Part shown: in pieces, positions 3,886-51,627 of the stretch | How the letters are laid out: the number at the start of each line of letters is the position of its first letter | How positions within the stretch are numbered: the first letter of the stretch is position 1 | Source of the DNA: an uncultured Chloroflexia bacterium | Lineage (GTDB): Bacteria; Chloroflexota; Limnocylindria; Limnocylindrales; CSP1-4 | Assembly: GCA_963833225.1 (NCBI GenBank) | Contig: CAWHXD010000006.1 | Span: forward strand, 160,001-224,000 | Length of the DNA stretch: 64,000 nucleotides | Direction: 5' to 3' | Translations under genes and position numbers: made by a program | The notes under the pieces: generated by a model | What the model was told of the DNA's origin: nothing | Database searches by the model: none | Seen by the model: the letters and a program-made list of their open reading frames with translations, nothing else

Positions 3886-4058
3886 GGCGCGGCTCCTGTT
3901 TCGTCGAGCGACTTGTTAGGCAGCTAGCAAAATAGCACCGGGCGTCAACGCGCGTCGAGCCACGTTCTGGGGGGAGACCGCACGCCTACGCTGCTAGACT
4001 CCGGGTGCCGCGGACATGTCCCGTCGCGGCGATCCCACGACGTCCCCGGAGGCGCACC

Positions 4059-4880
4059 ATGACCGACGACCGCGAGCGCTGGGCCCTGATCCTTGGAGCT
4101 TCCTCCGGGATGGGCGAGGCCACCGCGCTCGCCCTGGCGGGTGCCGGCTACCGGATCTGCGGCGTCCACCTGGACTTCCGGGCTGCGCTGGCGCACGTCG
4201 AGGAGATCAAGGCCAAGATCGGCGAGCTTGGCTCCGAGGCGCTGTACTTCAACATGAACGCGGCGGACGACGACAAGCGGCATGCCGCCCTCACGACCCT
4301 CCGCGAGCGATTCGACCAGTCGGTCGCGGCCGGCGGGCATCCGTACGTCCGCGTGGTCATGCACTCGCTCGCCTTCGGCTCGCTGGTGCCGTTCCTGGCC
4401 GAGGACCCCAAGGGTGCCGTCGACCGCAAGAAGATGGAGATGACCCAGGACGTCATGGCCAACAGCCTCGTCTACTGGGTCCAGGACCTGTGGCGGAGCG
4501 GCTTCCTCGAGCGGGGATCGCGGATCTTCTCGATGACGTCGGAGGGGTCCAGCCGCGTCGTTCCCAGCTACGGGGTCGTGTCGTCGGCCAAGGCCGCGCT
4601 CGAGTCGCACACCCGGCAGCTGGCCATGGAGCTCGCCCGGCTCGGGACGGGAGTCACGGCCAACACCATCCGGGCGGGCGTCACGCGCACGCCGGCGCTG
4701 ATGAAGATCCCCGAGCGGGACGCAATCATCGAGGCGGCGACCCGCCGCAACCCCACGGGGCGAATGACAACGCCCCAGGATGTGGCGAGCACGATCCTCG
4801 CGCTCTCGGGCGAGGGGACCGACTTCATCAACGGCGAGATCATCGGCGTCGATGGCGGCGAGTTCATCACCGGCTCATAG
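4059..4880 (+). CDS. SDR oxidoreductase, enoyl-ACP reductase (FabL/FabI-like)
   Basis: LILGASSGMG Rossmann motif, YGVVSSAK (YxxxxxxK) catalytic motif, NPTGRMTTPQDVA, VDGG; GGAGG RBS. Confidence 0.8.
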   Translation: MTDDRERWALILGASSGMGEATALALAGAGYRICGVHLDFRAALAHVEEIKAKIGELGSEALYFNMNAADDDKRHAALTTLRERFDQSVAAGGHPYVRVVMHSLAFGSLVPFLAEDPKGAVDRKKMEMTQDVMANSLVYWVQDLWRSGFLERGSRIFSMTSEGSSRVVPSYGVVSSAKAALESHTRQLAMELARLGTGVTANTIRAGVTRTPALMKIPERDAIIEAATRRNPTGRMTTPQDVASTILALSGEGTDFINGEIIGVDGGEFITGS

Positions 4881-4924
4881 GCAGCGGCCCGCGGCGCGGG
4901 CGGAAAGGAGATGGAGGCGGACCG

Positions 4925-5968
4925 ATGAGCGGTCGGGTGCTGGTCGTCGGGTCGGTCAACGTCGACCTCGTGGTCCAGACGGAGCGTCTGCCGCTGCCCG
5001 GCGAGACGGTCATGGGCGGCACGTTCAGCCGGTTCCACGGCGGCAAGGGTGGCAACCAGGCGGTCGCGGCCGCCCGCCTTGGCGTGCCCGTGATGCTGGT
5101 CGCGGCGCTGGGTGACGATGAGTTCGCCGGCGACGCACGGGCCGCGCTCGCCCGTGAAGGGATCGGCACGGATGTCCTGGTCACCCTGGACCGCACGGCG
5201 ACGGGCGTGGCCCTGATCCTCGTGGACGCCAAGGCAGAGAACCAGATCGCGGTTGCGCCCGGGGCGAACGCCGGCCTCACGGCCGCTCACGTGCGCGAGG
5301 CCCTCGGGCGGCTCAATCCGCACGCCGGTGACGCGGTCATCGTCACCCACGAGATCTCAACCGCCGCCGCGCGCGAGGCACTGCGCATCGGTCGCCAGGG
5401 TGGCGCGTGGACCATCCTCAATCCGGCGCCCGCCGATGGCTTGGACCGGACCGTGATCTCGCTGGCCGACGTCGTCGTTCCCAACCGGGGTGAGCTCGCG
5501 CGTCTTGTCGCGGACGATGCGCGGCGCTCCGGCCGGACGGCCCCGGGTCCCGACGAGCCCGTCAAGGCCGCCCGCATGCTCCTCGAGACGACGAGCGAGG
5601 GACCCGGGGCGGGCAAGGCGATTCTCGTGTCGCTGGGGTCGGCCGGGGCGGTCCTCGTCCGCCGCGACGGCCCCGCGATCGACATCAAGGCCCCCAGGGT
5701 GAAGGCAATCGATGCCACGGGCGCGGGTGATGCGCTCAATGGGGCGCTGGCCGCCGCGCTTGCCACGGGGCTGGACCTCGAGGCGGCGGCGCGTCGAGCG
5801 GTGGTTGCCGCCAGCGTGTCCGTCACGCGGGCGGGTGCTCGTGAGGGCTACCCGACACTTGACGAGCTGGCGATCGCGCTCGGCCAGACGCCGCCGTCAC
5901 AGCTCCGTGCCGAGGCAGAGGCCGCCGCGCGGGCGGAGGCGGAGACCGAGTCGACCGGGTCGGCCTGA
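4925..5968 (+). CDS. rbsK: Ribokinase (PfkB family)
   Basis: VVGSVNVDL, PGETV, GGKGGNQAVAAARLG, ILNPAPA, DATGAGDALNG. Confidence 0.9.
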   Translation: MSGRVLVVGSVNVDLVVQTERLPLPGETVMGGTFSRFHGGKGGNQAVAAARLGVPVMLVAALGDDEFAGDARAALAREGIGTDVLVTLDRTATGVALILVDAKAENQIAVAPGANAGLTAAHVREALGRLNPHAGDAVIVTHEISTAAAREALRIGRQGGAWTILNPAPADGLDRTVISLADVVVPNRGELARLVADDARRSGRTAPGPDEPVKAARMLLETTSEGPGAGKAILVSLGSAGAVLVRRDGPAIDIKAPRVKAIDATGAGDALNGALAAALATGLDLEAAARRAVVAASVSVTRAGAREGYPTLDELAIALGQTPPSQLRAEAEAAARAEAETESTGSA

Positions 5969-5970
5969 CC

Positions 5971-7011
5971 CTAGCCGAGCCGGTGCTCGGCCGCCCAGGC
6001 CGTCCTGACGCGCGCCTCCGGGGTCATCCCCAGGCGGCCGTTGTCGTCCACCCACCACGCGGCCACGCCGCGCGCCCGGGCATCGTCGGCGATGCCGTCG
6101 TGTCCGGCAAGGAACAGGGCCTTGCTCCAGACCTCCGCCCAGGCCGGGTCGGGGGCGGCCACGGTCACGGCGATCAGCCCGGTGCGAGCTGGGTCGCCCG
6201 TGCGCGGGTCCACCAGGTGGTGCACGGCCATCCCATCCGGTCCAACCCAGTTCCGGACCCGGACGGACGACGTTGCGACGGCACCCGCCCCCACGGCCAC
6301 GACCACTACCGGGTCGGCGCTCGCAGGATCCGGCGCGGCGGGATCCTCGACCCCGACCTGCCAGCCATCGGCCGGCGCCTCGCCACCAGCCACGAGGTCG
6401 CCACCCGCATCGAGCAGCAGCCCCGCACCGGGCTCCAGCGCTCCGAGCGCCCGATCGCGAGCCCAGCGAAGGGCGAGCCCCTTGCCGATCCCGCCCAGGT
6501 CGACCGGAATGGAAGGCACATGGACGAGCCGGCCGGCGTCAGTGGAACCCTGGGGGTCAGGCGCGGCCGCGGGCAACGCATCGAGCCGCGATTGCGCGTC
6601 GCCATCACCCGGCGCCAGGTCCGCGCCGTGCTCGCCGATCCGTTCCAGCGCCCCCAGCACGGAGGCGTCGAACCGTCCGTCGGTCACGCGAGCCGCCCGG
6701 TCGATCGCGGCGAGCGCCCTGCGCAGGCGCCATGAGACGCGGACGATCTGTCCGCTGCCGGCGAGCCGGTTGATGCGCGTGAGCTCCGAGTCGTCGCGGA
6801 ACCGCGAGAGGGCAAGGTCAACCGCGTCGAACTCGGATCGAACCTCCGCCCATGCGCGGTCGGCGGCGGCCAGCGCCGCGGCCGAGGCGGGCTCAGGAAG
6901 CCGGACCGTCATTCGGAGCGCGGATCCGAGCGCGCGCGCCGCGAAGGCGACGGTCCGATCTGGACCGTCGCCTTCGAGTGGAGGAGCCCCGGCAGGTGGG
7001 ATGAAGTTGAT
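5971..7011 (-). CDS. apbE: FAD:protein FMN transferase (ApbE)
   Basis: LSRFRDDSELTRIN, TDGRFDASV, DLGGIGKG, DAGGD, ATSS, HHLVDPRTG. Start uncertain: ATC 7011 after GAGG, or ATG 6912. Confidence 0.9.
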   Translation of the reverse strand: MNFIPPAGAPPLEGDGPDRTVAFAARALGSALRMTVRLPEPASAAALAAADRAWAEVRSEFDAVDLALSRFRDDSELTRINRLAGSGQIVRVSWRLRRALAAIDRAARVTDGRFDASVLGALERIGEHGADLAPGDGDAQSRLDALPAAAPDPQGSTDAGRLVHVPSIPVDLGGIGKGLALRWARDRALGALEPGAGLLLDAGGDLVAGGEAPADGWQVGVEDPAAPDPASADPVVVVAVGAGAVATSSVRVRNWVGPDGMAVHHLVDPRTGDPARTGLIAVTVAAPDPAWAEVWSKALFLAGHDGIADDARARGVAAWWVDDNGRLGMTPEARVRTAWAAEHRLG

Positions 7012-7018
7012 CGCGGCC

Positions 7019-7579
7019 TCAGCCTCCGGACGCACCGGACTTGCCGGAGGTCTTCGGGGCAGAGCCTCCGCCGCCGCCGCCGCTCGAGATCGGGCCGCGA
7101 ATGGACACCGTCGGCAGCTTGATCCGGGCCGGAAGGGCCGCGGCCGAGCCCTGGACTTCGGCAACCAGGGCCGCCAGGCTGTCCAGCCGCGCCTGGTAGG
7201 CCGCAACATCGGCCCCCGTTGCCCCGTAATCGGTGATCAGCGCGCTGATGGAGCCGTTCGCGGCCTGGATCCGGGCCGCCAGCGCGTCGTTCGCGGCCTT
7301 CGACGTGGCGACCGCCTGGAGCAGCGGCTCCCGGGTCGCGGCGATCGAGGCGTCGTCCCGAGCCTGGAGGACGGAGATCCCGGCCAGCGTCGCGGCGTAC
7401 ATGGCCGCCGAGGCACCGATCAGCATCCCGGCCCGGGCGGGCATCGAGAGGATGGTCTCGTGCCGCGCGACGGTCGGACGATCGATCGCCCGCGGCACGG
7501 CGATGGGACTCTCGGTCGCGCCGGCCGCCGGTCGACGGCGGACTCCAACGCCGATGGCGGGGAGGGCGCGCTCAGTCAT
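7019..7579 (-). CDS. Membrane-anchored coiled-coil protein with C-terminal SGAS tail (candidate flavinylation substrate)
   Basis: One hydrophobic segment, Ala/Leu heptad region, Pro/Gly linker, ends APKTSGKSGASGG; overlaps the upstream gene's stop. Confidence 0.7.
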   Translation of the reverse strand: MTERALPAIGVGVRRRPAAGATESPIAVPRAIDRPTVARHETILSMPARAGMLIGASAAMYAATLAGISVLQARDDASIAATREPLLQAVATSKAANDALAARIQAANGSISALITDYGATGADVAAYQARLDSLAALVAEVQGSAAALPARIKLPTVSIRGPISSGGGGGGSAPKTSGKSGASGG

Positions 7580-8081
7580 CGTCCCGCTCCCCACCGCCGC
7601 CACCACCACCGCCGCCCCCGCCGCCACCACCACTGCTGCGCCTCGCGGCGGCCTGGCGATTGAGCGCGGCCTGGCGGGTCGCCGCGCGATTGAGCGCGTC
7701 GAGGCGGCCCTGCGCGGACTTGAGCTGCTTCTGCATCTTGGTGAGCTTGTCCTTGGCGGCCGCCAGCTGGTCCTGGAGCAGCGTGGCGCTCTCGGTGTCA
7801 CTGTCCATGGAGCCATTGGCCGCGATCAGCGCGGCCTGGAGGTCTGACACCTGCGTCGCCACGCCGCCGATCTGCGCCTCGAGGTCTGCGGCGCGCCCGG
7901 ATTCGGCCGCGTACTGGTCGTTGATCGTGCTCAGGCTCACCGGAGACGTGTCGAGGGGCGCTTCCGCCACCCGCCATTCGGACGCGAGCTGGACGGTGTA
8001 CGCGCCAACGCCGATCACGGCGGCGGTCGCGGCGAGCACGAGCGCGCGTCGTGCGATCCTGGTGAGCAGGTCCCTGGACAT
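7572..8081 (-). CDS. Membrane-anchored or secreted coiled-coil protein with poly-Gly/acidic tail
   Basis: MSRDLLTRIARRALVLAATAAVIGVG then LEAQIGGVATQVSDLQAAL...LTKMQKQLKSAQGRLDAL; TGATG-coupled to the upstream gene. Confidence 0.72.
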   Translation of the reverse strand: MSRDLLTRIARRALVLAATAAVIGVGAYTVQLASEWRVAEAPLDTSPVSLSTINDQYAAESGRAADLEAQIGGVATQVSDLQAALIAANGSMDSDTESATLLQDQLAAAKDKLTKMQKQLKSAQGRLDALNRAATRQAALNRQAAARRSSGGGGGGGGGGGGGGERDDD

Positions 8082-8788
8082 CAGGACTCCTCCACGGTGA
8101 CGGTTGCCGGCCGGGGCCGGACGAGGGACATGGACGACGTTGCCGGCTCCTCGACGCGCCGCGGGCGAGCCTTCGCGGTCCACCAGCGATGGGCGACGCC
8201 CAGGAGGATCGGCACGCCGGTCGCCACGTACAGCGGCATGAGCGCGCCGCCGTCCGTGCCGGCAAGGACGCTGTGCACCCACGTGAGCAGGAACGTCAGC
8301 GCCGAGAGACGATGGATCTTGAGCCACCACCCGTCGGGCAGGAGCTTGGTCCACTTGGCGGTGATCGCGGTGACGAGCATCGCGTACGCGGTCAGCGTTC
8401 CGATTGCGATGGCGGGTGTCCGGTACTCGGACAGGCCCGGGACCAGCGCGCCGAGCCAGCCGACCTTGGCGAACGGGTCGATCGCCATCAGGACGATGTG
8501 CAGGATGAGGAACGCCCAGACGAAGACGGTGAGCAGCTCGTGCCACGGAACGACCTGGCGGGTCGTCCGCCAGGCTGCGGTATTGCGCGGGTGGCTGAGG
8601 ACGAGGCCAAGGCCCACCTGGAGGGTGAGCAGGAGGTAGGCAGTCACCCCGAGTGCGCGCGCGGCGATCCACGGTCGCAGCTCGAGGACCCGGGGATCAG
8701 CTGCGGGGAGCACCTGGTCGGTGACGGCCAGCGCCACGAGGGCGACCACGGCCCCGATGGCGACGAGCGTGATGGCGCCGATGCGCAT
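8081..8788 (-). CDS. Ferric-reductase-like transmembrane (MsrQ-like) cytochrome b
   Basis: About 6 TM helices with four His in two pairs (WHE...ILHI; KIHR...WVHS) as in heme-b ligands; GGAGG RBS before ATG 8788. Confidence 0.8.
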   Translation of the reverse strand: MRIGAITLVAIGAVVALVALAVTDQVLPAADPRVLELRPWIAARALGVTAYLLLTLQVGLGLVLSHPRNTAAWRTTRQVVPWHELLTVFVWAFLILHIVLMAIDPFAKVGWLGALVPGLSEYRTPAIAIGTLTAYAMLVTAITAKWTKLLPDGWWLKIHRLSALTFLLTWVHSVLAGTDGGALMPLYVATGVPILLGVAHRWWTAKARPRRVEEPATSSMSLVRPRPATVTVEES

Positions 8789-8892
8789 GCCTGGACCTCC
8801 GTGGCGTCTCCGCATGGTGTGGTACGACTCCGAGGCAGCCCAGCACCCGAAGGTTTCACCTCGACCGGCGCCGTTGGTCCCCCGCCCACCCC

Positions 8893-8919
8893 GTACCAGC
8901 CGGCGGGCGCCGCTGGTAC
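8893..8919 (-). terminator. GC hairpin downstream of the metal-binding protein gene (possible terminator)
   Basis: GTACCAGC-N11-GCTGGTAC about 10 nt past the stop; no U-tract. Confidence 0.35.
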
Positions 8920-8928
8920 CCGGGCTCG

Positions 8929-9855
8929 TCAGCCGCCCAGCGCCCGGACCACCTGGTCGAGGTTCCAGGTCATCACGCCCACGTAGGTGTCGACCGGGGC
9001 ATCACCAACCGTGTCCGTGTACAGGTCGGAGACCACCACCACGCCCGTCTCGTCCGCGATGGTCCGCACGAGGTCCTCGCTGAACTGGGCCTCCGCGAAG
9101 ATCGCGCGGACGCTGTCCGCCCTGACCACGCGGATGAGGTTCGCAACGTCGCCAGCGCTCGGGTCCTGGCCGGGTGCGTCGACGATCGTGCCGTCGATCC
9201 GGAGGCCGTAGGCGGCGGCGAAGTACGGGAACGCATCGTGGAACGAGAGGACCGTGCGGTTTGCCTCCGGGATCGCCCCGAGCGTCGCGCGCAGCGTCGC
9301 GTCGAGACCGTCGAGCACCTCGGTGTAGGCGCTGAGCCCGGCCGCGTACTCGGCAGCGTGCCCCGGATCCACCGCCGTGAGCTGCTCGGCGATGCGCTCC
9401 GCGTACTTGGCGGCGTAGGCCGCGTTGAGCCAGAGATGGGGGTTTGTCGCCAGGCCGTCGGGGCCGCTCGTGATGTAGTCGACGCCGGGGAGGTCCTCGC
9501 CAAGGCGGACGACGGGAGCGGCCGTGCCCGCGTCGGTCACCAGGTTCGCCAGCCAGTCGTCGAGCCCCAGGCCGTTGAGGAACACGAGATCGGCGGCGGC
9601 GAGTCGCCGCACGTCTGACGGCGTGGGGTCGAAGGTGTGGACCTCGCCGCCCCGCGGCACGAGGCTGTCCACCGTCACCCGGCTGCCACCGACCTGGGCG
9701 ACCAGGTCGGCCAGGATCGTGGTCGTCGTCACCACCTGCACACCACCGGACGACGGTGCGGCCGCACCCCCCGTGTCGGCGCATGCGGCCGTGAGAACGA
9801 TCAGGATCAGGGCGGAGATCACCAGCGGCATCGCCCGCACGGGTCGGCGCGTCAT
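8929..9855 (-). CDS. znuA: Zn/Mn ABC transporter substrate-binding lipoprotein
   Basis: Lipobox LTAAC, EVHTFDPTPSD, NPHLWLN, FHDAFPYFA. Confidence 0.88.
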   Translation of the reverse strand: MTRRPVRAMPLVISALILIVLTAACADTGGAAAPSSGGVQVVTTTTILADLVAQVGGSRVTVDSLVPRGGEVHTFDPTPSDVRRLAAADLVFLNGLGLDDWLANLVTDAGTAAPVVRLGEDLPGVDYITSGPDGLATNPHLWLNAAYAAKYAERIAEQLTAVDPGHAAEYAAGLSAYTEVLDGLDATLRATLGAIPEANRTVLSFHDAFPYFAAAYGLRIDGTIVDAPGQDPSAGDVANLIRVVRADSVRAIFAEAQFSEDLVRTIADETGVVVVSDLYTDTVGDAPVDTYVGVMTWNLDQVVRALGG

Positions 9856-9861
9856 CCCGGC

Positions 9862-10329
9862 TCAGCCCTCCTGCGCCTGGGCCGACGCTGCCTGGCAGGC
9901 GGCGCACAGTCCGAAGATCTCGAGCCGATGCTCGGTGACCCGGAAGCTCGAGCGGCGCCCGATCTCGCCGAGGATCTCCGCGAGGCCGCGATCCGCCACA
10001 TCGAACGAGCGGCCACAACCGGTGCAGATCGCGTGGTGGTGGTGGATCGGGTCACAGGCGACGTAGGCGTGATCGCCCCCGGGCAGGTCGATCCGCTCGA
10101 CGAGGCCCAGCGACGCGAACAGGTCCAGCGCCCGGAAGATCGTTGCCCGGCCCACGTCCAGCTGCCGGCGGCGAGCGTCGTCCTCGAGCTGCGCCGCGGT
10201 GAAATGGCCCTCGCGAGCCGCGATCAGATCGGCGACGGCGCGCCGTGGCGCCGTGAGCCGCTGGCCGGCCCGTTGGAGCGCGGCGACAAGGTGGCCGCCG
10301 ATGGGGGCCTCAGCCGGTGCGGTGGTCAC
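9862..10329 (-). CDS. zur: Fur-family regulator (Zur-like)
   Basis: RLTAPRRAV, HFTAAQL, ATIFRAL, HHHHAICTGCG, FGLCAAC; sits inside the metal-ABC operon. Confidence 0.85.
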   Translation of the reverse strand: MTTAPAEAPIGGHLVAALQRAGQRLTAPRRAVADLIAAREGHFTAAQLEDDARRRQLDVGRATIFRALDLFASLGLVERIDLPGGDHAYVACDPIHHHHAICTGCGRSFDVADRGLAEILGEIGRRSSFRVTEHRLEIFGLCAACQAASAQAQEG

Positions 10330-11210
10330 GCCGGCGTTCCGCCGACCGCCAGGGCGTCGTCGACCACCACGGGATCCGACCGGTGCCGCCGCCTGGCGAG
10401 CGGTCCGCGCGGCCCGAGGAGGAGGGCCACACCGAAGGCGGCTGTCTGGACCAGGACGATGGTGGCGCCGCTCGCGACGTCGGCCCAGTAGGACACGTAG
10501 AGTCCCACGACCGCGCTGGCGATCCCGATCACGGCGGCCAGCAGCATCACCCGCGTGAACTGCACCGTGAGCAGCTGGGCGGCAGCTGCCGGGGTGACCA
10601 GCATGGCCACGACCAGGATGATCCCCACGGCCTGGAGGCTGACGACGATCGTGAGCGCGACCAGCGCCAGGAACAGGTACTCGAGGCGGTCGACCTTGAT
10701 CCCCGAGGCGGCCGCCCCGAGGGGGTCGAACGTCGCGTACAGGAGCTCCTTCCAGAGCACCGCGACCGTGGCGATGACGCCGCCACCGAGGATGAGCAGG
10801 GCAACCAGGTCCCCGGTTCCGATCGCGAGGACGTTGCCGAACAGGAAGCTGAACAGGTCGGCCACGTAGCCGCGGATGCTGCTGAACATGAACACGCCGA
10901 GGGCGAAGGTGCCGGCGAACAGCACCCCGATCGCGGTGTCCTGGCGCACGCCGGCCCGCTTGGTCACGAACCCGATGGCCAGGGCGGTGCCCACGGCCGC
11001 GATCGCTGCGCCGATGTAGAACGGGATGCCGAGCAGGTAGGCGGCGACGACACCCGGGAAGCCCGCATGGGCGATCGCGTCGCCGATGAACGCCACGCCG
11101 CGCAGCACCACATAGGTGCCCACCACGGCGCACACGACGCCCACGAGCGCGAGGGCGACCAGCGCCCGGATGAAGAAGCCGTCACCGAGGGGACCGAGCA
11201 GGAGGTCCAT
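10326..11210 (-). CDS. znuB: Metal ABC transporter permease
   Basis: FIGDAIAHAGFPG, FLFGNVL, TFDP, GIILVVAMLVTPAAAA. Confidence 0.9.
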   Translation of the reverse strand: MDLLLGPLGDGFFIRALVALALVGVVCAVVGTYVVLRGVAFIGDAIAHAGFPGVVAAYLLGIPFYIGAAIAAVGTALAIGFVTKRAGVRQDTAIGVLFAGTFALGVFMFSSIRGYVADLFSFLFGNVLAIGTGDLVALLILGGGVIATVAVLWKELLYATFDPLGAAASGIKVDRLEYLFLALVALTIVVSLQAVGIILVVAMLVTPAAAAQLLTVQFTRVMLLAAVIGIASAVVGLYVSYWADVASGATIVLVQTAAFGVALLLGPRGPLARRRHRSDPVVVDDALAVGGTPA

Positions 11211-12127
11211 CAGCGGTTCACCTCGTGGAAGTGGCGCTCGCCGGGGTTCGCGTCGTCGTGGTGGTGGGCGTCATCGAGGACGATCGTCGAACCACCCAGG
11301 ATCAGCAGGTGGCCGCCATACGCCGCCGCGAGCACATCGGTGTCGAGGACCAGCTCCGACGGGCCGTACGCGACCACCGTGCGGTTGATGGCGAGGACCT
11401 GCTGGAACCGTTGCGAGGCGCACGCGAGATCATGCGTCGTGGCGACCACGGTCTTGCCCCGCGCGGCCTGGGCCTCGAGAAGGTCCATCAGCAGCTCCTG
11501 GGTGGTGGCGTCGATGCCCGTCACCGGCTCGTCGAGCAGGAACAGGTCCGGCTCGGCGGCGAGCGCACGGGCCAGGAACACGCGCCGGCGCTGGCCGCCG
11601 GACAGCCGCCCGATCTGCGTCCCCAGATGGCCGTCCATGTGGACCTGTCCGAGGGCGTCACGGACGGCGCGCCGGTCGTCCGGACCGGGACGACGGACCC
11701 GCCCCAGTCGTGGAAAGCGGCCCATCATGACGACATCCTCGACCGAGACCGGGAATGCCCAGTCCACCAGCTCCGCCTGCGGGACGTAGGCGACCCGCCT
11801 CGCCTCCCGGCCCGCGGGGCCGCCGAGCACCTCGATCCGGCCGCTCCACGGGGTGGCCAGCCCGGCCATCAGCTTGAGCAGCGTGCTCTTGCCCGCGCCG
11901 TTGGGGCCCACCACCGCCAGCAGGCTGCCGGGCTCCACGGCGACGGTGACGTGCTCGAGGGCCGTGCGCTCGCCGTAGCCCGCGGAGACGTCGCTCAGCC
12001 ACACGTCCGCATGGGCGTGCGCATGGGCCGCGTCCACGCCGGCCGCCGGGTCGTGGTCGTGGCCGCGATGGGCAGGGATGCCCGCAGGGTGGGAAGTCCC
12101 CGGCGGAGCCGGGCTCAGGGTGTCCAT
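11210..12127 (-). CDS. znuC: Metal ABC transporter ATP-binding protein with His-rich termini
   Basis: GPNGAGKST, YVPQ, LSGGQRRR, LLDEP; HRGHDHD/HAHAHA at the N-terminus and HHHDD at the C-terminus. Confidence 0.9.
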   Translation of the reverse strand: MDTLSPAPPGTSHPAGIPAHRGHDHDPAAGVDAAHAHAHADVWLSDVSAGYGERTALEHVTVAVEPGSLLAVVGPNGAGKSTLLKLMAGLATPWSGRIEVLGGPAGREARRVAYVPQAELVDWAFPVSVEDVVMMGRFPRLGRVRRPGPDDRRAVRDALGQVHMDGHLGTQIGRLSGGQRRRVFLARALAAEPDLFLLDEPVTGIDATTQELLMDLLEAQAARGKTVVATTHDLACASQRFQQVLAINRTVVAYGPSELVLDTDVLAAAYGGHLLILGGSTIVLDDAHHHDDANPGERHFHEVNR

Positions 12128-12144
12128 ATGAGACACAGTATCAT
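12128..12144. promoter_or_regulatory. Zur/Fur-type inverted repeat overlapping a probable leaderless znuC promoter
   Basis: ATGAGAC-ACA-GTATCAT (7-3-7, one mismatch) abuts the znuC ATG; contains minus-strand TACTGT 7 nt before the ATG. Confidence 0.65.
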
Positions 12145-12237
12145 CTAGCGACACACGTCGCGAATCCTGCCCCAACGCCGCGTGTGCGCGACAATGCTGT
12201 CTGTTCCTCGCCCCCAGCACCAGACCGGAGGCCTCCC

Positions 12238-13071
12238 CTGAGCGGCAAACAACCCACCCCGTCGACCACCCGCAAGGAGCGTCGCGCCGCCGAGCGCCGC
12301 GACCGGTTCGAGGCCGCCCGGGAGGAGCGGCGCGCGCGCCCGGCCGGTGGCGGTGGCGGGCCCTCGTTCATCAACAGTCGGAACATGACCATCGCCGGCG
12401 TGCTGATCGGCGTGCTGATCGTGGCCGTCGTGGCCGTCGGCCAGCTGGGCAACAAGGCGACCGGCCGGCTTGTCGACCCGGGATTCGCCTACCAGGCTGC
12501 GGTCGAGGACGGGTCGAACCTGGGCTCGGTGGATGCGCCGGTCCTGCTCGAGGTCTTCGAGGACTACCAGTGCCCGGTCTGCGCCCGGTACTCGCTGGAC
12601 GTGGAGCCGACCATCGTCAACAAGTACGTGGCCAGTGGCCAGGTCCGGATCGTGCACCACGACATCGACCTGCTGGGCGGTGGCGGCGACGAGTCCCGGA
12701 TCCCGGCGCTCGGAGCCTACTGCGCGGACCAGCAGGGCCTGTACTGGTCCTACGCGCACTGGATCTACAACAACCAGGACGGTGAGAACCAGGGTGGCTT
12801 CCGGCGCGAGCGCGTGATCCAGATCGCGGTGGCGGCGGGCGTGGACGAGGCGGCCTTCAACACCTGCATGGACAGCCCGGAGGCGGCAGCCGACGTCACC
12901 CAGACCACCGACATGGCTGCCGGCCTGGGCATCAACTCCACGCCGACGCTGCGGATCAACGGTGGTGACCTGATCCGGTCGCTGCTGACCGCGACGGACC
13001 TGAGCACCCTGATCGATGCCGAGCTGGCCAAGGCCAGCGGGGCGCCGGCCTCCCCGACCACCGCCCCCTGA
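12238..13071 (+). CDS. Membrane-anchored DsbA/thioredoxin-fold protein
   Basis: EDYQCPVC active site, GINSTPT cis-Pro loop, one TM helix; probable CTG start 6 nt after GGAGG. Confidence 0.85.
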   Translation: MSGKQPTPSTTRKERRAAERRDRFEAAREERRARPAGGGGGPSFINSRNMTIAGVLIGVLIVAVVAVGQLGNKATGRLVDPGFAYQAAVEDGSNLGSVDAPVLLEVFEDYQCPVCARYSLDVEPTIVNKYVASGQVRIVHHDIDLLGGGGDESRIPALGAYCADQQGLYWSYAHWIYNNQDGENQGGFRRERVIQIAVAAGVDEAAFNTCMDSPEAAADVTQTTDMAAGLGINSTPTLRINGGDLIRSLLTATDLSTLIDAELAKASGAPASPTTAP

Positions 13072-38994: not shown

Positions 38995-40249
38995 TGGAGT
39001 TGCTTCGGTTTCGTGGACGATCATTTCATGCCACTGATTGCTGGATCGACCACCTCCTCTCGAACTCGACGGTGAGATGTTGCCGATGGCCGAGTGGCGG
39101 CGGGTGCGGTTGTAGAAGACCTCGATCCAGTCGAAGACGGCTGCCCTCGCCTCGGCCCGGGTCACCCAGTGGCTGCGGTCGATGAGCTCGGTCTCGAGGC
39201 TGGCGAAGAGCTCTCGGCATGGCGTTGTCGTAGCAGGTGCCGGGGGCCCCGGTGGAGGCCGCGATCCCCGATCGGCGAGTCGGTCGCGGAACGCCTCGCT
39301 CGTGTACTGGGAGCCGCGATCGGAGTGGAAGATCACCCCCACCGGCCGCGGAACCCGAGGGCAGCGTCGAGGGCCGACGTGACGAGGTCGGTCCGCTGCC
39401 GCTCGGCCAACGACCAGCCCACGACCCGCCGGGAACAGGCATCGAGGACGGTTGCGAGGTAGAGCTTGCCCTCGTCGGTCGGGAGCTCGGTGATGTCGCC
39501 GACCCACAGCCGGCCGGGGCGGTCAGCGAGGGCGGTGAAGCGGCGCCGGACGAGGTCGGGCGCGGGGCTCGCGGCCGGGTCCTGCCGTGTGGTGGCGCGG
39601 TACCGGCGGCGGGTGACCCCCGGATCCCGGCCAGGCGCATCAGGCGGGCCACCCGGCGGAGACCCACCGGGATGCCGCCGCCCCGGATCTCGGCCCGGAT
39701 CCGGGGCGCGCCGTACGTGCCGCGGCTCGCGGCGTGGGCCAGCGCGATCCGGGCGACGAGCCGGGCATCGGCCTCCCGGCGCGGGGAGGGTGCCCTGCCG
39801 GGCCAGGCCCAGAAGCCGGTCGGGGAGACGCCGAGCAGGCGGCACATGCGCCAGACGGATGGCTGGCCTTCTCACGCTCGATGAACTGATACGCGCTCAG
39901 GCGCGCCGGCTCGTCTCCCGGGCGAGGGAAGCCGAGGCCGTACCTGGATCTCCCGCTCCTCCTCGAGGACGCGCACCCTCCGGCGGAGGGCGACGACTTC
40001 CGTGTGCTCGTCGAGCGCCCTCCGCTCCCGCGGGCTGGCCTGGGCCTAGTCTGCTCGACCCAGCGCCGGATCGTCTCGTGGCTCACGCCCAGGTCGGCAC
40101 CGACGGAGCGCAGCGTGGCGCCGGGCTGCCGGGCGAGGCGGACGGCCTCCTCCCGGAACTCCCGGGAGAAGCGGGTTGTTCTGGCCATGGGGACACCTCC
40201 AGGGGACCTCGTCACACAATCGGGTGTCCACGAAACCGGGTCAAGTCTA
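38995..40249 (-). mobile_element. IS3-family insertion sequence (orfA/orfB, frameshifted)
   Basis: Inverted ends TGGAGTTGCTTCGGTTTCGTGGAC and GTCCACGAAACCGGGTCAAGTCTA. OrfA MARTTRFSREFREEAVRL; OrfB fragments YGAPRI, LWVGDIT, FHSDRGSQY, FYNRTRRHS; about 1.25 kb. Confidence 0.9.
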
Positions 40250-40579
40250 CATCGGCCCGGACCGCGGGCGGCTCCAGGAGCACCGTCCACCACATTGGGG
40301 TGAGGCCGTCCCCACGGGGGGTGGACGGAGAGCGATCCGTCGTGATCCTCGAGGACCCCAGGGCGACATACCTCCGGCGGTCGTTGGCGGGGTTGTAGAT
40401 GGGGCGGGCCGATGTTGCCGTGCCAGCAGATGCCGGGACCCTTCGATGTCGCCGACGGACGACAGAGCCCGGCTTTGTCGACGTCCCGGCTGATGACCAC
40501 AGGTACATCGAAGCGTCTTCGAGCGGGACTCCCGCACATGTAGGGGAGTGCGGGGCTGGCCTCGACGGTCGGCCGGAGC

Positions 40580-41230
<651 letters not shown>

Positions 41231-42512
41231 TGACGTCAAGACTCTTGTGTAAAAGCAACGAGCGGGCGCGCTGCCAGGAGCTCGTTGAGGCGGAGCACCC
41301 CGCCATACAGGATCCGGTCTGCTGACCGGCGGTCAGCGAGCGCGCCGATCGGCCGGAGCCGGCGGCGGAGCTCGCGGAAGGCGCGCTCGAGCAGGTTGGT
41401 GGTGCGCAGGCTGGCCCGGAGCGGCTCGGGCAGCGAGAACACGGCGAGCAGGCTGTCGAGGTCGCGCTCGAGCCCGCGGACGAGGCGGGGATGGCGCTCC
41501 CGCCAGGCCTTCGCCCAGCGCCAGTAGGCTGCCACCGCGGCCCGCCTCGTGCGGGCCCGGTAGATCGAGCGCAGGCTGCGCAGGCAGGCCCGCCGTTCGG
41601 CGAGCGGGAGCGCCTCGAGGATGTTCCGGAGCCGGTGGGTCCAGCAGCGCTGCAGCTCGGCTGCGGGGAACGCCTCGGTGACCGCGGCGGCGATCCCGCC
41701 GGCCCCGTCGGCGGCCACGAGGAGGACGCCCTCGGGGTCGAGCCCCCGCTCGACGAGCGAGCGCAGGAGGATCCCCCAAGCCGCCGCCGACTCCGCGCTG
41801 GCCTGGCGATAGTCGAGCAGCTCGCGCCGACCGGCCGCATCGATCCCGTAGACCGCGAGGATCACCCGCCTGGCGGCCCGGCCGCTCCGGTCGCGGACCG
41901 AGACCCACAGCCCGTCGCAGAGCAGGTAGCGGGCCGCGAACGGGATCGGCCGCCGGTGGAAGGCAGCGACCCGGGCGTCGAGCGCCCGGCCGAGCCGGCT
42001 GATCGCGCTCGCGCTGAGCGGGACGCCGGTGAGCCGCTCAGCGAGCCGGGCCGTCTCGCGGGTGGAGAGGCCCCGGCTGAACGCCTCGCGCAGCAGCCCG
42101 TCGACGAGGCTCGTCCGGCGGGCCGCCCGGGCCAGGAACGACGGGCGGTACGGGACGAGCCTCCGGCGCGGGACGTCGAGCTCGGTCGCCCCGAGCTCGG
42201 TCACGAGCAGGCGCCGGTAGATCCCGTTGCGGTGGTCGAGCCGCTCGCGCGTGCGTTCGTAGCGCCCCGCGAGGATCAGCGCCGTCAGCTCATCCTCCAT
42301 CGTCGCCTCGAGGATCGTCCGGACGGCGGCGAGGAGCTCGGGGCGCAGGTCGCCCCACAGCGCCTCCTCGTCCCTCACCTCCGCCCAGCGCTGGGCTGGT
42401 GTCCGGTCGGTCAGAGCGGGTACCGTTGCCATGGGCGTACTCCTTCTGTGCTGGAACACGTGAAGTTGTACGCCCGCTCGTTTCGGGCTTTCCCACAAGA
42501 GACGCTACGTCA
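41231..42512 (-). mobile_element. IS256-family insertion sequence
   Basis: Imperfect IRs TGACGTCAAGACTCTTGTGTAAAAGC and GCTTTCCCACAAGAGACGCTACGTCA enclose a single transposase. Confidence 0.88.
41236..42432 (-). CDS. IS256-family (mutator-type) transposase
   Basis: RNGIYRR, GLSTR, YLLCDG, ADGAGG, QRCWTH, TTNLLERAFRELRRR; AAGGAG RBS. Confidence 0.9.
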   Translation of the reverse strand: MATVPALTDRTPAQRWAEVRDEEALWGDLRPELLAAVRTILEATMEDELTALILAGRYERTRERLDHRNGIYRRLLVTELGATELDVPRRRLVPYRPSFLARAARRTSLVDGLLREAFSRGLSTRETARLAERLTGVPLSASAISRLGRALDARVAAFHRRPIPFAARYLLCDGLWVSVRDRSGRAARRVILAVYGIDAAGRRELLDYRQASAESAAAWGILLRSLVERGLDPEGVLLVAADGAGGIAAAVTEAFPAAELQRCWTHRLRNILEALPLAERRACLRSLRSIYRARTRRAAVAAYWRWAKAWRERHPRLVRGLERDLDSLLAVFSLPEPLRASLRTTNLLERAFRELRRRLRPIGALADRRSADRILYGGVLRLNELLAARPLVAFTQES

Positions 42513-47896: not shown

Positions 47897-48807
47897 GCGT
47901 TGGGCTCCTCGACGGCTCGCTGGGCGCGCGAACCGGCGCCGGGGGCGAAGCGAGAGATGACGAACAGGAGGGCGAAGGCGAACACCAGGGCGGCCAGCGA
48001 CACGGCGACCGAGATGAACGGATCGCGCTTGCCGAGCAGGTAGATCACCACCTGGATGGTGTTGAACGCGAGCAGCGAGGAGATCGTGTACTCGCCCAGC
48101 ACCAGGGCGATGGCGAGGACCGAGGCCGACAGGATGCCGCCGCGGATGTTGGGGACGATCACCTGGAAGATCGTCCGAGGCCAGCCGGCGCCCAGGCTGC
48201 GGGCGGCGTCGGCCAGCGTGGCGGTGTCGATCGCCCGGAGCGCCGCGTCGATCGCCCGGTACGAATACGGAAGCACGAGGATGATGTCGATGAAGGCAAG
48301 CGTGAGCGCGGACGCGCCGACCCCGCCGAGGTTCTGGCCCATCCAGCGGTAGATGGGGGCGATGCCCACCACGATCACGATCGCAGGAATGGCGAGCGGG
48401 AGCAGGCACAGGAACTCGACCACTCTGCGCATGCGCGGCACGCGGACCACGGTCCAGACCATCGTGGGGACCAGCAGGATCAGCATCCCGAACACCGTGA
48501 GCGCCGCGATCTCGAGCGAGGTCGCGATGCTCGACACGAGGTCCTCGTTGCCGAGGATCGCCGCGAACGAGTCGAGCGTTCGGGCGTAGGTCGAGGTCGC
48601 CCGGTCGAAGTCGCCGCGGGTGGAGAACTCGAGCATCGCGAGCAGCGGCACGATCAGGTAGCCGAGCACGATGATCAGGACCACGATCCTCGTGACTCGC
48701 TGGCCCAAGGGAGCTCGGCGCCCCCTGCCGGCGCCTTTGGGGCGGCTGATCATGGCGCCGCCCTCAGGGGCCGCAGCGCCTAGAGAGGTCGGTGTGGACG
48801 CGGTCAT
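47893..48807 (-). CDS. ABC transporter permease (PotC-like)
   Basis: EAA-like loop LADAARSLGA; about 6 TM helices. Confidence 0.85.
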   Translation of the reverse strand: MTASTPTSLGAAAPEGGAMISRPKGAGRGRRAPLGQRVTRIVVLIIVLGYLIVPLLAMLEFSTRGDFDRATSTYARTLDSFAAILGNEDLVSSIATSLEIAALTVFGMLILLVPTMVWTVVRVPRMRRVVEFLCLLPLAIPAIVIVVGIAPIYRWMGQNLGGVGASALTLAFIDIILVLPYSYRAIDAALRAIDTATLADAARSLGAGWPRTIFQVIVPNIRGGILSASVLAIALVLGEYTISSLLAFNTIQVVIYLLGKRDPFISVAVSLAALVFAFALLFVISRFAPGAGSRAQRAVEEPNA

Positions 48808-49733
48808 TTCACCCACCTCGAGGCGCGCCGCTGGATCCAGGCGTAGACGAGCATCACGAACGAGACGACCACGATCATCGCCAGCGCCAGCGCCTTGCCG
48901 ACGTTCTCCTGGCCGAGCACGACCTCGCTCGTCATCTGGTTCGCGATCTGGAGGGTGATGATGGGGGCGCCCTGGCTGATCAGCGCAGCCGCGGTCGCGT
49001 ACGCCGAGAAGGCGTTGGTAAACAGCAGCAGCAGCGCGCCCAGGAAGCTCGGGGCGAGAATCGGGCCGCCCACGTGCCGCCAGAACGACCAGGAGCCGCC
49101 GCCCAGGCTGGCCGACGCGTCGTACCACTCCTGTCGCAGCCCGTCGAGCGAGGGCAGGAACACGATCAGCATGAGCGGGATCTGGAAGTAGGTGTAGACC
49201 ACCGCCAAACCGGTCAGGCTGTACAGCCACGACATGTCGAGCTGCATGCCGAGGTTGTTCTTGATGATGACGGTGACCAGGCCGTTGAAGCCGAAGGTCG
49301 CGAGGAACGCGAAGGCGAGCATGACGCCGCCGAACTGGGCAAGCACGCCCGAAGCGGCGATCACCATCTGGCGAAGGAGTCCGTTCGGATCGCCCCGGGC
49401 CACCGCCCACGAGAGCAGCCCGCCGAAGACGGCGCCCAGGATCGCGGTGATCACCGCAAGCTGGAGGGCCTTCACCATCGAATCGATGAATACGTCCGTG
49501 GTGAAGATCGCCTGGATGTTCTCAAGGGTGAACGATCCGTCGCTGGTCATCAACGCACCGACGGTGACGATGAGGGTCGGGAGCAGGAGGAACAGCCCGA
49601 CATAGGCGTGGAAGGGGATGAGGGCGAGGTAGTTCCCCGCCCCCTTGAAACGGCTGGTGTCGGCCCCACGCGGTGTGGGACCGACACCAGCGGACGAGGG
49701 GGACTCTGGCATGGAGGCCGCTGGTTCGGTCAT
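48804..49733 (-). CDS. ABC transporter permease (PotB-like)
   Basis: YFQIPLM, WYDASASLGG loop; about 6 TM helices. Confidence 0.85.
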   Translation of the reverse strand: MTEPAASMPESPSSAGVGPTPRGADTSRFKGAGNYLALIPFHAYVGLFLLLPTLIVTVGALMTSDGSFTLENIQAIFTTDVFIDSMVKALQLAVITAILGAVFGGLLSWAVARGDPNGLLRQMVIAASGVLAQFGGVMLAFAFLATFGFNGLVTVIIKNNLGMQLDMSWLYSLTGLAVVYTYFQIPLMLIVFLPSLDGLRQEWYDASASLGGGSWSFWRHVGGPILAPSFLGALLLLFTNAFSAYATAAALISQGAPIITLQIANQMTSEVVLGQENVGKALALAMIVVVSFVMLVYAWIQRRASRWVK

Positions 49734-49764
49734 GCGAGCCCCTCCTCTGTCAACGCTCAGTTGG

Positions 49765-50946
49765 CTACGGGATCGAGATGAACTTCCAGTTGTCCGTGAG
49801 GTACGTCTTCGCGGCCTCGGTCTGGGCATCCGTCAGGATGACGGGTGCGGTCGAGGGCGGGTTGAGCGCGGCGGCGGCTGCCTGGTCGATCGTTCCGGCC
49901 GTCGTCATCGCGGCAGACCGGACCGGCAGGGCGAAGCCCTTGAGGAACGTGTTCTGGCCGGCGTCGGAGAAGAGGTACTCCTGCCAGCAGCGAGCGGCCG
50001 CCGGGTGCGCCGCGTCCTTGTTGATCGTGGCGTTGTAGAAGGCGCCGACGGGCGGCGCGTCCGTCGGGATGACGGTCGTCCAGGTGATGCCCTTGGGCTC
50101 CAGGGAGGTGGCCAGCGGGCCGTTGTTGTAGCCCCAGTCGATGACGATCGGGGTCTGGCCCGACGCGATCGTCGCCGGGGTCGGGTCGACCGGCAGCAGG
50201 TTGCCCATGTCGGAGAGCGTCTTGAAGAAGTCAACGCCTGGGGCGATGTCGTCAGCCGAGCCGCCGTTGGCCAGCGCAGCCATCACGACGCCGTTGAAGC
50301 CCGCAGAGGCCTTGAGCGGATCGCCGTTGAGGCCGACCTTGCCCTTGTACTTCGGATCAGCGAGATCGGCGACCTTGGTGATCGTCCCAATGCTGGTGTC
50401 GTAGCCGATCGACATGAAGCCCATGTAGTTGTTGGTCCAGACGCCGTTCGGGTCCTTGTTCCCGTCCGGGATGTCTGCCCACGTCGCGACCTGATACGGC
50501 GCATACATGCCGGTGTTGGCGAGCATGACGGCCGTCCCGAGGTCGAACGTGTCGGGCTGGCGGCCGGTGCCGGCCAGCTGGTTGGCAGCGTCGATCTCCT
50601 GCTGGCTGTTGGCGTCGGGCTGGGCCGAGTTGACCTTGATCCCGTACTTGGTCTGGAAGTCAGTGATCATCTGGCCGTAGTTCGCCCACTCGGGCGGCAG
50701 CGCGATGACGTTGAGCTCGCCCTCGGCCTTGCCGGCGGCGCAGACGGCGTCGACGCCGCCGTCACCAGCGGAGGTGGCGGTCGACCAGTCAACCGCCGCG
50801 GCGGTGGGCTCGGTGGTGGACGCGGTGGTGGGGGCGGTGGTGGGGGCGGTCGTCGGTGCCGACGTGGCACCCGACCCGCCGCAGGCGGCTACCGCGATGA
50901 CGGTGACCGCCAGCGCTGCAATGATCCTGGGTTTCATCGAGTTCAC
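49765..50946 (-). CDS. ABC substrate-binding lipoprotein (polyamine/Fe(III)/thiamine class)
   Basis: Lipobox AVAAC, Thr/Pro tether, LPPEWANYG, HPAAARCWQEYLFSD; GGAGG RBS. Confidence 0.85.
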   Translation of the reverse strand: MNSMKPRIIAALAVTVIAVAACGGSGATSAPTTAPTTAPTTASTTEPTAAAVDWSTATSAGDGGVDAVCAAGKAEGELNVIALPPEWANYGQMITDFQTKYGIKVNSAQPDANSQQEIDAANQLAGTGRQPDTFDLGTAVMLANTGMYAPYQVATWADIPDGNKDPNGVWTNNYMGFMSIGYDTSIGTITKVADLADPKYKGKVGLNGDPLKASAGFNGVVMAALANGGSADDIAPGVDFFKTLSDMGNLLPVDPTPATIASGQTPIVIDWGYNNGPLATSLEPKGITWTTVIPTDAPPVGAFYNATINKDAAHPAAARCWQEYLFSDAGQNTFLKGFALPVRSAAMTTAGTIDQAAAAALNPPSTAPVILTDAQTEAAKTYLTDNWKFISIP

Positions 50947-51173
50947 TCGTTCTCCTCCAATGACCGGTGCTCAACGAGTCCCGGTCGTAAGTCCCGCAAC
51001 TCGGGCGATCTGTGCTTCGGATCCGGCCAATGCCGCGCCCGAACGTTGCAAATCGGAGTCTACCTCCCTGCTTCGGGCCGGTGTTCGCCCGTGCCAGCCG
51101 GTGATCTCATTGCTACCCCCCAATTCGAGTCCTCCGGTCGGGATTGGGATGCCGCGCTACACTCGCCGAACCG

Positions 51174-51569: not shown

Positions 51570-51627
51570 CACCGCCACCGTCCGTCCGCCGTTCCGGCGG
51601 CCCGTCGTCGCACCGGAGCCTGACGCC

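Follow-up and report, generated by a model that had tools for sequence, protein, structure and literature searches.

A conserved C-terminal tail as a candidate flavin carrier in an ApbE- and cytochrome-linked gene module of uncultured Chloroflexota

We analyzed a 64,000-nucleotide stretch of DNA from an uncultured Chloroflexia bacterium (here called the window). On its minus strand, at positions 5971 to 8788, it carries a four-gene module encoding a ferric reductase/MsrQ-like membrane protein (FRD), two single-anchor helical proteins (CC1 and CC2), and ApbE, a flavin adenine dinucleotide (FAD):protein flavin mononucleotide (FMN) transferase. The C-terminal tail of CC2 and the order of the four genes are conserved among relatives, the known ApbE substrates are missing, and a model of FRD in complex with CC1 and CC2 passes its calibrated mark. 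On balance, we favor the view that CC2 is a natural "flavin-tag" carrier in a membrane electron transfer module, in which ApbE would flavinylate Ser184 of the tail for metal reduction.

The C-terminal tail of CC2

ApbE is reported to recognize a minimal motif of seven residues, D-x-x-[S/T]-G-A-[S/T], the last of which is modified (PMC12052999). Tags of this length are described as modified by ApbE in their own right and as most effective at either end of a protein (PMC12052999), so that the premise on which the proposal builds, modification of a bare terminal tag, has precedent. The initial annotation, made from the sequence alone, had singled out SGAS at positions 7028 to 7039 as the C terminus of CC2, and this is how the protein ends (...GGGGGGSAPKTSGKSGASGG / ...SAPKTSGKSGASGG). 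Counted from the putatively modified Ser (position 0), the K-S-G-A-S of CC2 fits the ApbE motif at positions -3, -2, -1, and 0. AlphaFold2 (AF2) predicts a single CC2 helix at residues 46 to 148, with a predicted local distance difference test (pLDDT) score above 90 for about residues 70 to 140, followed by 38 disordered residues. The tail comprises a conserved LPxRIxLPxV segment, a linker, and a conserved end; in an alignment of 32 CC2 sequences, the linker ahead of the motif varies in both length and composition. Of the initial description of an unstructured, Gly-rich tip, the disorder stands (pLDDT 45 to 64), while the Gly richness is confined to this genome, the family linker being rich in Ser, Thr, Pro, and Ala.

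A tail of this kind is not rare within one genome: 6 of 26,994 stop-to-stop frames of at least 80 amino acids end in [ST]GA[ST]G plus zero to three residues here, and the signal therefore lies in conservation among relatives. The 32 aligned CC2 sequences, drawn from several genera, have a mean column identity of 42% and only six invariant columns, two of which are the terminal Ser184 and Gly185 (32/32); Ala183 is kept in 90% or more. When 1.84 billion representative proteins were searched with a profile, 366 CC2 relatives were found at E ≤ 1e-3 (282 at E ≤ 1e-10), and tail positions were counted in the best 150 of the 366, aligned on the terminal Ser. S-G followed by zero to four residues closes 126 of these 150. 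The motif, whose conservation in homologs the initial annotation had named as a check, is kept at the protein level across genera. Within the motif core, these 126 tails have Thr or Ser at -3 in 125, Gly at -2 in 82, and Ala at -1 in 117; further upstream, Pro occupies -9 in 111, Thr or Val -7 in 99, Ala -5 in 99, and Thr -4 in 84, and position -6 holds His, Asn, or Gln in 87 (51, 26, and 10, respectively). The family consensus end is P-x-[TV]-[HNQ]-A-T-T-G-A-S-G. By eye, most of the remaining 24 retain the Ser in variant ends (...TTGASAKP, ...TSGGSAKP), and about nine look truncated or miscalled.

We also collected, with CC2 alignment A1, 53 named loci from metagenome-assembled genomes (MAGs), most of them represented by 6.4 to 6.6 kb; all are from Chloroflexota, mostly MAGs of Candidatus Limnocylindrales or "uncultured Chloroflexia." S-G closes the CC2 tail in 51 of the 53 and A-S-G in 48, and the remaining 2 have the tail in another reading frame. 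CC2 proteins of other genera end in TTGASGG, KTGASG, STGASGH, TTAASGG, CTTASGKPC, and the like.

Could the motif have arisen by chance in a tail of low complexity and high GC content, or does it follow from the overlap with the ribosome-binding site and start of apbE? The frame count above would allow the former, and GGAGG and GTG do lie within the tail codons in this genome, as the latter would have it. The terminal Ser-Gly is nevertheless invariant in 32 diverged sequences and present in 126 of 150 relatives. The codons for SGASG differ at their third positions among loci, which argues that selection acts on the protein, and apbE begins well past the CC2 stop codon in many loci; together, these two observations indicate that overlap with apbE is not the cause of the conservation. 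We therefore rejected a DNA-level origin in the Shine-Dalgarno sequence or start of apbE. A CC2-ApbE fusion by frameshift or read-through was rejected as well, because the relative frame of the two genes differs among loci. A chance or by-product origin is thus already contradicted by the sequences, and we regard its probability as practically negligible; judged from this conservation, the CC2 tail is not chance. No [ST]GA[ST] recurs at any other aligned position of FRD, CC1, or CC2.

Two variations in the tail deserve mention. At L100 and L112, the CC2 tail and the rest of the protein lie in different reading frames, which points to a frameshift in the assembly or the gene. L045, L049, L127, and several relatives (P0027, P0064) have a tail with two flanking Cys residues, ...C-T-T-A-S-G-K-[AP]-C, which could close the tag into a disulfide loop.

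The four proteins, their predicted assembly, and their spread

ApbE (PF02424) scores 143 bits against a cutoff of 25.6 bits over residues 54 to 321 and matches the solved structure 3pnd_A (E = 4.7e-20), including the H-x-x-D-P-x-T-G stretch (vhHlvDPrTG in the query, vsHviDPqTG in 3pnd_A). By family membership, it would act as an FAD:protein FMN transferase that takes FMN from FAD. Its start, initially placed within 10 nucleotides of CC2, is uncertain: the candidates are a GTG at 7035, within the CC2 tail codons, and an in-frame noncanonical ATC at 7011, 8 nucleotides past the CC2 stop, and the next canonical start (ATG at 6911) would remove conserved residues. No signal peptide, anchor, or hydrophobic N terminus was found in ApbE here or at any locus examined, and a signal peptide hidden in an upstream overlapping frame was rejected, as the 60-residue upstream translations of the loci contain none. 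Characterized ApbEs typically carry an N-terminal lipoprotein or secretion signal, and cytosolic ApbEs are also known (PMC12052999), so the missing leader does not exclude membership in the family. One genome (L013/L027) has a leaderless ApbE that opens with five tandem EPEPSV-type repeats ahead of the conserved fold.

This genome, which is 86% complete, has two ApbE genes. A genome-wide search for FMN_bind, NqrB/RnfD, and DUF3570 gave no match at E ≤ 0.1, and the best DUF2271 match reached only 14 bits; the earlier statement that no FMN_bind, DUF2271, Nqr, or Rnf substrate is recognizable in the window thus holds and extends to the whole genome. Relative G139, from another genus and 89% complete, has a single ApbE, located in this module, and FMN_bind was not found in it. 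Relative G024 (95% complete) has two ApbE genes and no known substrate family above cutoff, FMN_bind included. DUF3570 was sought in three relatives, in a search for which no control genome gave a match. CC2 itself matched no flavin-binding fold in Pfam or NCBIfam (FMN_bind, NqrB/RnfD, DUF2271, DUF3570, or flavodoxin-like), and AF2 predicts helix plus disorder. To our knowledge, every established ApbE substrate keeps its flavin in a folded domain. DUF2271 and DUF3570 were identified as substrates from an orphan apbE, a conserved neighbor, and a conserved [S/T]GA[S/T] motif (PMC8238504), and by analogy the same logic would point to CC2.

FRD matches Pfam Ferric_reduct (PF01794) with an E value of 1.6e-5 and 25.4 bits. 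It has six hydrophobic helices and consists of the membrane domain only, lacking an FAD/NAD (nicotinamide adenine dinucleotide) domain. Its His pairs H83/H97 (14 residues apart) and H159/H172 (13 apart) are invariant in 23 of 23 orthologues, a pattern as expected for a transmembrane electron carrier with two b hemes, and the initial reading of an MsrQ/ferric reductase-like protein with four heme-type His residues is therefore upheld.

CC1 and CC2 belong to no family in Pfam or NCBIfam; the only matches were weak, subthreshold coiled-coil noise, on which grounds a known family was rejected for both. CC1 is predicted by AF2 to form helices at residues 3 to 38, 50 to 90, and 96 to 150 and to have a disordered end (pLDDT < 50, residues 152 to 169), which here consists of a Gly run followed by ERDDD. 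In the family, the CC1 tail follows a pattern of the type ...E-H-x-D-D: over the 53 loci, the last 10 residues contain on average 4.9 Asp or Glu, and His occurs within the last 12 in 35. The overlap with the start of CC2 partly dictates the final Asp-Asp, but the acidity reaches further upstream. In one subclade (L035, L036, L049, L119, L122, and L123), CC1 carries ...TTTGASG or ...TTTRASG just ahead of its acidic end; in these, both rods may bear the tag. Lys plus Arg are more numerous on the N-terminal than on the C-terminal side of the membrane helix in all of 20 CC1 sequences; among 32 CC2 sequences, this is so in 21, and 7 are tied. Both proteins are therefore predicted to be oriented N-in/C-out, with their tails outside.

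We modeled FRD, CC1, and CC2 as three chains with two hemes, alongside three controls. CC2 scored 0.80 against FRD and CC1, compared with 0.10 for the best control; of 157 solved complexes, 116 attain the mark that CC2 reached, as do 2 of 215 mismatched pairs, counts that are rough for this model, which used its own alignments and included ligands. The runs had at least 37% of their contacts in common, and the pLDDT of the partner was at least 53. In the confident contacts, the CC2 membrane helix lies against FRD helices 1 to 3 and the loop at residues 178 to 182, and the invariant CC2 residues Y61 and L65 touch FRD helices 2 and 3. CC2 residues 75 to 118 touch CC1 residues 42 to 88 at three- to four-residue (heptad) spacing that rises in both chains, a contact pattern that we read as a parallel pairing. 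Confident contacts between CC1 and CC2 end at a break in the CC1 helix at residues 91 to 95, so that a fold-back is conceivable. Together, these results support, without showing, binding of CC2 to FRD and CC1, and they accord with the earlier idea of a possibly heterodimeric coiled-coil arm, here parallel and docked on the cytochrome.

The gene order is as persistent as the tail. CC2 occurs in 19 of the 24 other genomes of the same genus and in none of 16 from a sister family whose genomes measure 1 Mb. FRD-CC1-CC2 is retained at each of these 19 loci and ApbE at 18; the remaining locus is cut by a contig edge. Across the order, the CC2 profile matches 64 of the family's 158 other genomes and none of 42 from the sister family, and 14 of the family's 32 genera, the own genus counted, have CC2. 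All 14 loci examined from other genera keep FRD and ApbE; tblastn missed CC1 once and CC2 once, and where CC2 was missed, the tail ...TTSASGH is nonetheless present at the locus. The 53 named loci have FRD in 53 and ApbE in 51, the 2 without ApbE stopping short. The synteny with apbE and a ferric reductase-like gene that the initial annotation had asked after is thus seen as the order FRD-CC1-CC2-ApbE in every locus examined that is not cut short. In a sample of 400 genomes from the phylum, the CC2 profile matched 11 of 23 from the family to which this genome belongs, 4 of 16 from another family in the class, and 0 of 361 from 80 other families.

Related modules vary the same theme. The second ApbE of this genome belongs to a diverged module (L022, at G000 contig C7:609637-612425) with the order small anchored protein with an acidic, His-containing tail (...ENDEHEQGERGGQDD), anchored protein ending in ...KTRQSGK, leaderless ApbE, and FRD-like protein; a response regulator lies on the opposite strand, and the FRD-like gene runs off the contig end. 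The second protein of such paralogous modules ends in ...RQSG[KR](P), for example ...T-R-Q-S-G-K-P, in 5 of 5 loci. At L066 (G117) and L054 (G104), ApbE and FRD pairs are preceded by proteins with long Pro/Thr- or Ser/Thr-rich linkers, one of which ends in ...PTAASGKP and the other in a Ser/Thr/Gly-rich tail. Read from these sequences, the recurring unit would thus be a leaderless ApbE, a di-heme FRD, and small anchored proteins that terminate in T-x-x-S-G. A classical cluster is present as well in two genomes of the genus; in it, an FRD fused to FAD/NAD domains is followed by an anchored FMN_bind protein (DGISGATYTS) and by ApbE, which likewise lacks a signal peptide (e.g., L053, G006:C1:2713426-2716647). 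From this order, it follows that CC1 and CC2 occupy the position of the gene for a known substrate.

The proposed mechanism and its alternatives

We propose the following sequence of events. FRD, with its two predicted hemes, would carry electrons across the membrane, most likely from the quinol pool, because it has no NAD/FAD domain. CC1 and CC2 would form a parallel N-in/C-out helical heterodimer that docks on FRD via the CC2 membrane helix, and ApbE would move FMN from FAD onto the invariant Ser of the disordered CC2 end (...T/S-G-A-S-G; Ser184). CC2 would thereby carry a tethered flavin while lacking any flavin-binding domain and would be a natural equivalent of the engineered Flavin-tag. 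From the outer heme, electrons would pass to the tethered FMN and on to an extracytoplasmic acceptor, for which a metal ion, Fe(III) for example, is the most probable candidate. This metal may be held by the CC1 tail, rich in His and Asp, and would be imported by the Fur-linked ZnuA/ABC-3 transporter of the same operon. The CC1 tail, the Fur/ZnuABC context, and the paralogous modules go beyond what the initial annotation described. The swinging arm that would serve a distant acceptor, as suggested there, is likewise an inference, to which the geometry given below is an obstacle.

Several observations weigh against this proposal. The canonical Asp at -6 is absent from CC2 (Ser here, mostly His, Asn, or Gln in the family), 44 of the 126 relatives have a residue other than Gly at -2, the strict [ST]GA[ST] is found in only 23 of the 53 loci, and the paralogue tail has Gln at -1; for the first of these, replacement of the Asp in the motif is reported to have minor effects only (PMC12052999). 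The PF01794 score of FRD falls under the 28-bit gathering cutoff. CC2 residues 72 to 148, as a helix, would be about 11 nm long (0.15 nm per residue), and the 38-residue tail would seldom reach the outer heme. A flavin without a binding pocket would be solvent exposed. The complex model carries no information on ApbE with the tail. Finally, since ApbE is leaderless and CC1 and CC2 are predicted to be N-in/C-out, the membrane appears to separate the enzyme from its candidate substrate. The same mismatch occurs in the classical FMN_bind cluster of the genus and is therefore a property of the lineage, not an argument specific to the tail. Possible answers are modification ahead of export, an unrecognized export route, or a wrong topology.

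The first of these answers leads to a bolder form of the proposal, which we consider distinctly unlikely: leaderless ApbE would flavinylate the CC2 tag in the cytoplasm before or during Sec-dependent export, as may be possible given that a tail without structure, and not a folded domain, is to be modified, and a minimal, domain-less extracellular metal reductase would result. If this were true, the cell would place a covalent flavin outside without exporting FAD or the enzyme, the FMN of CC2 and the His/Asp tail of CC1 would sit together at the tip of a heterodimeric stalk of about 11 to 15 nm, and reduced metal would be fed to the adjacent Fur-controlled ABC importer.

The tail may instead have nothing to do with flavin. 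FRD, CC1, or a cell wall partner could dock on it, or its Ser/Thr-rich end could be modified in some other way; ApbE would then serve a different, unrecognized substrate or act in flavin trafficking as a supplier of FMN. The departures at -6 and -2, the T-R-Q-S-G motif of the paralogue, and the location of the tail within Ser/Thr-rich low-complexity sequence all suit such a role, and some ApbE homologues are reported to be FAD pyrophosphatases (PMC4767422). Yet the best-conserved positions (Thr/Ser at -3, Ala at -1, and Ser at 0) coincide with the ApbE motif, CC2 is always the immediate upstream neighbor of apbE, genomes whose sole ApbE sits in the module have no other known substrate family, and the module proteins have no other recurrent [ST]GA[ST]; we accordingly think this explanation unlikely. 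Alternatively, the topology may be reversed, with rods and tails in the cytoplasm and flavinylated there, the tethered FMN serving as a cytoplasmic electron input to FRD in place of an FAD/NAD domain. Such an arrangement would explain why ApbE has no export signal at any locus and why FRD here lacks the FAD/NAD domain that the classical FRD of the genus has, and cytosolic ApbEs have precedent (PMC12052999). Against it, the positive-inside rule puts the N termini inside for all 20 CC1 and most CC2 sequences, and the paralogue Pa opens with a signal anchor-like MIQK followed by a hydrophobic run. CC2 residues 65 to 72, at the outer end of the membrane helix, meet FRD residue 41 in the model, which is the outer end of helix 2 if the FRD termini are inside, an assumption taken from a reading of charged loops and not from a prediction tool. 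The anchored FMN_bind partner of the classical cluster, moreover, also pairs with a leaderless ApbE. We consider reversed topology very unlikely.

Metal context, relation to known systems, and implications

The module forms the last half of a row of eight codirectional minus-strand genes that runs from 12220 down to 5971 (Table 1), with a gap of 140 nucleotides between the ZnuA-family gene and FRD. The stop codon of FRD overlaps the start of CC1 (TGATG), and CC1 and CC2 overlap by 8 nucleotides (ATGACTGA), in agreement with the earlier claim that the first three genes of the module overlap at their stop/start ends. A ZnuA gene lies directly upstream of FRD in 48 of the 53 loci, and further upstream here are genes for FUR, ABC-3, and an ATP-binding cassette (ABC) ATPase; in other genera, the genes beside the module include ZIP, ZnuA/ABC-3, multicopper oxidase, and Rrf2. 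On the other side, a short-chain dehydrogenase/reductase (SDR)/enoyl-reductase-like gene (4005-4880, plus strand) and a PfkB-family kinase gene (4886-5968, plus strand) converge on apbE; both recur beside the module in other genera, and the wider neighborhood is therefore syntenic. A promoter and terminator scan of positions 5800 to 12500 gave nothing exceeding the expectation from shuffled sequence. Elsewhere in the window, G+C content is lower at 40001-42000 (0.64) and 48001-52000 (0.67 to 0.68) than the typical 0.71 to 0.74.

TABLE 1 Features of the FRD-CC1-CC2-ApbE module and the genes upstream of it
Feature	Position	Strand	Basis
ABC transporter ATPase, first gene of the row	11210..12220	-	Pfam ABC_tran, E 9.1e-27
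ABC-3 family metal importer permease	10326..11210	-	Pfam ABC-3, E 3e-74
Fur-family metal-responsive regulator	9862..10335	-	Pfam FUR, E 3.1e-23
ZnuA/TroA-family metal-binding lipoprotein-like solute-binding protein	8929..9855	-	Pfam ZnuA, E 8.2e-75
FRD, ferric reductase/MsrQ-like membrane protein, 235 aa	8081..8788	-	Pfam PF01794 (below cutoff); invariant His columns
CC1, single-anchor helical protein, 169 aa	7572..8081	-	AF2 helices; flank charges; alignment A2
CC1 disordered acidic/His tail	7575..7649	-	Composition in 53 loci; pLDDT < 50 for residues 152-169
CC2, single-anchor helical protein, 186 aa, candidate flavin carrier	7019..7579	-	AF2; alignments A1 and A3; 366 relatives
CC2 membrane helix, residues 50-71	7367..7432	-	Alignment A3; complex model; flank charges
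CC2 helix, predicted extracytoplasmic, residues 72-148	7136..7366	-	AF2; complex model
CC2 disordered C-terminal tail, residues 149-186	7022..7135	-	pLDDT 45-64; variable linker columns in A3
CC2 S-G-A-S flavinylation-type motif; Ser184 codon 7030-7028	7028..7039	-	Invariant columns; frequencies in relatives; synonymous codon variation
ApbE (FAD:protein FMN transferase), start uncertain (GTG 7035 or ATC 7011)	5971..7035	-	Pfam ApbE, 143 bits; 3pnd_A

The proposed role of CC2 resembles that of swinging-arm carriers in that a covalently tethered group would ride on a flexible segment, and it differs in that the arm would be an unfolded C terminus bearing a redox flavin. Swinging-arm cofactors (lipoyl, biotinyl, and phosphopantetheinyl groups) sit as flexible tethers on a small folded carrier and transfer acyl or carboxyl groups. 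Another likeness is to the Flavin-tag, which is described as fully flavinylated by ApbE (Tong et al. 2021, as reviewed in PMC12052999): both end in a bare motif of about seven residues, closed by a modified (in CC2, putatively modified) Ser or Thr, without a flavin-binding fold. Unlike the Flavin-tag, which is synthetic and begins with Asp, the CC2 tail is natural, has Ser, His, Asn, or Gln at that position, and sits on a membrane-anchored helical stalk beside a cytochrome.

Among natural systems, the module comes nearest to the MsrQ-like clusters of Meheust et al. (2021; PMC8238504), in which a PF01794 two-heme protein lies beside apbE and for which an extracytosolic flavin and links to iron assimilation are proposed. 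Those clusters, as described there, typically include a gene for an FMN-binding domain, often have an NAD-binding domain on the MsrQ-like protein, and are mainly actinobacterial (PMC8238504); the module described here is from Chloroflexota, has neither domain, and carries two rod-like proteins in the position of the FMN-binding gene. We place it among the MsrQ-like flavinylation systems, with CC2 as a candidate substrate of a new type: FRD sits two genes from apbE and so places PF01794 within the five genes of the published definition, which is to be read alongside a leaderless ApbE and the absence of the other three domains that the definition names. For some MsrQ-like clusters, assimilatory iron reduction has been proposed (Meheust et al., PMC8238504), and a Bifidobacterium apbE mutant, only loosely related, is reported to grow poorly under ferrous iron chelation (PMC5449479).

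The flavinylated FMN reductase and Flavodoxin_4 proteins (Huang et al. 2024, PMC11334425) are likewise substrates outside FMN_bind, and in FMN reductase the modified Ser lies on a C-terminal extension; they are described as folded flavoproteins with the flavin in a pocket, whereas CC2 is helix plus predicted disorder. Listeria FmnB/PplA (PMC8238504, PMC9973259) offers a parallel, likewise in a monoderm cell, with an ApbE-type enzyme and a membrane-tethered surface protein that passes electrons outward. In Listeria, however, PplA has folded FMN-binding domains, the ApbE (FmnB) is a lipoprotein, and there is a dedicated flavin transporter (PMC8238504, PMC9973259); here, ApbE is leaderless, no flavin exporter was seen in the operon, and the acceptor would be a bare tail. 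Targeted literature searches, which covered neither the supplementary tables of PMC8238504 nor those of PMC11334425, did not turn up any natural flavinylation tail that is terminal and domain-less. Both surveys, as they are described, relied on Pfam domains and signal peptides and would have missed the CC2 family.

If CC2 is flavinylated as we propose, covalent flavins can work as tethered, pocket-free electron shuttles, and Pfam-based surveys overlook a whole class of flavoproteins. The survey of Meheust et al. left 4% of genomes (670) with an orphan apbE (PMC8238504), part of which would then be explained. The CC2 family would also be a source of natural, evolutionarily optimized flavin-tag sequences together with their cognate enzymes. 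The module sharpens the question of how leaderless ApbEs act on partners whose predicted location is outside the membrane, and it points to a possible route of metal reduction in abundant uncultured soil Chloroflexota.

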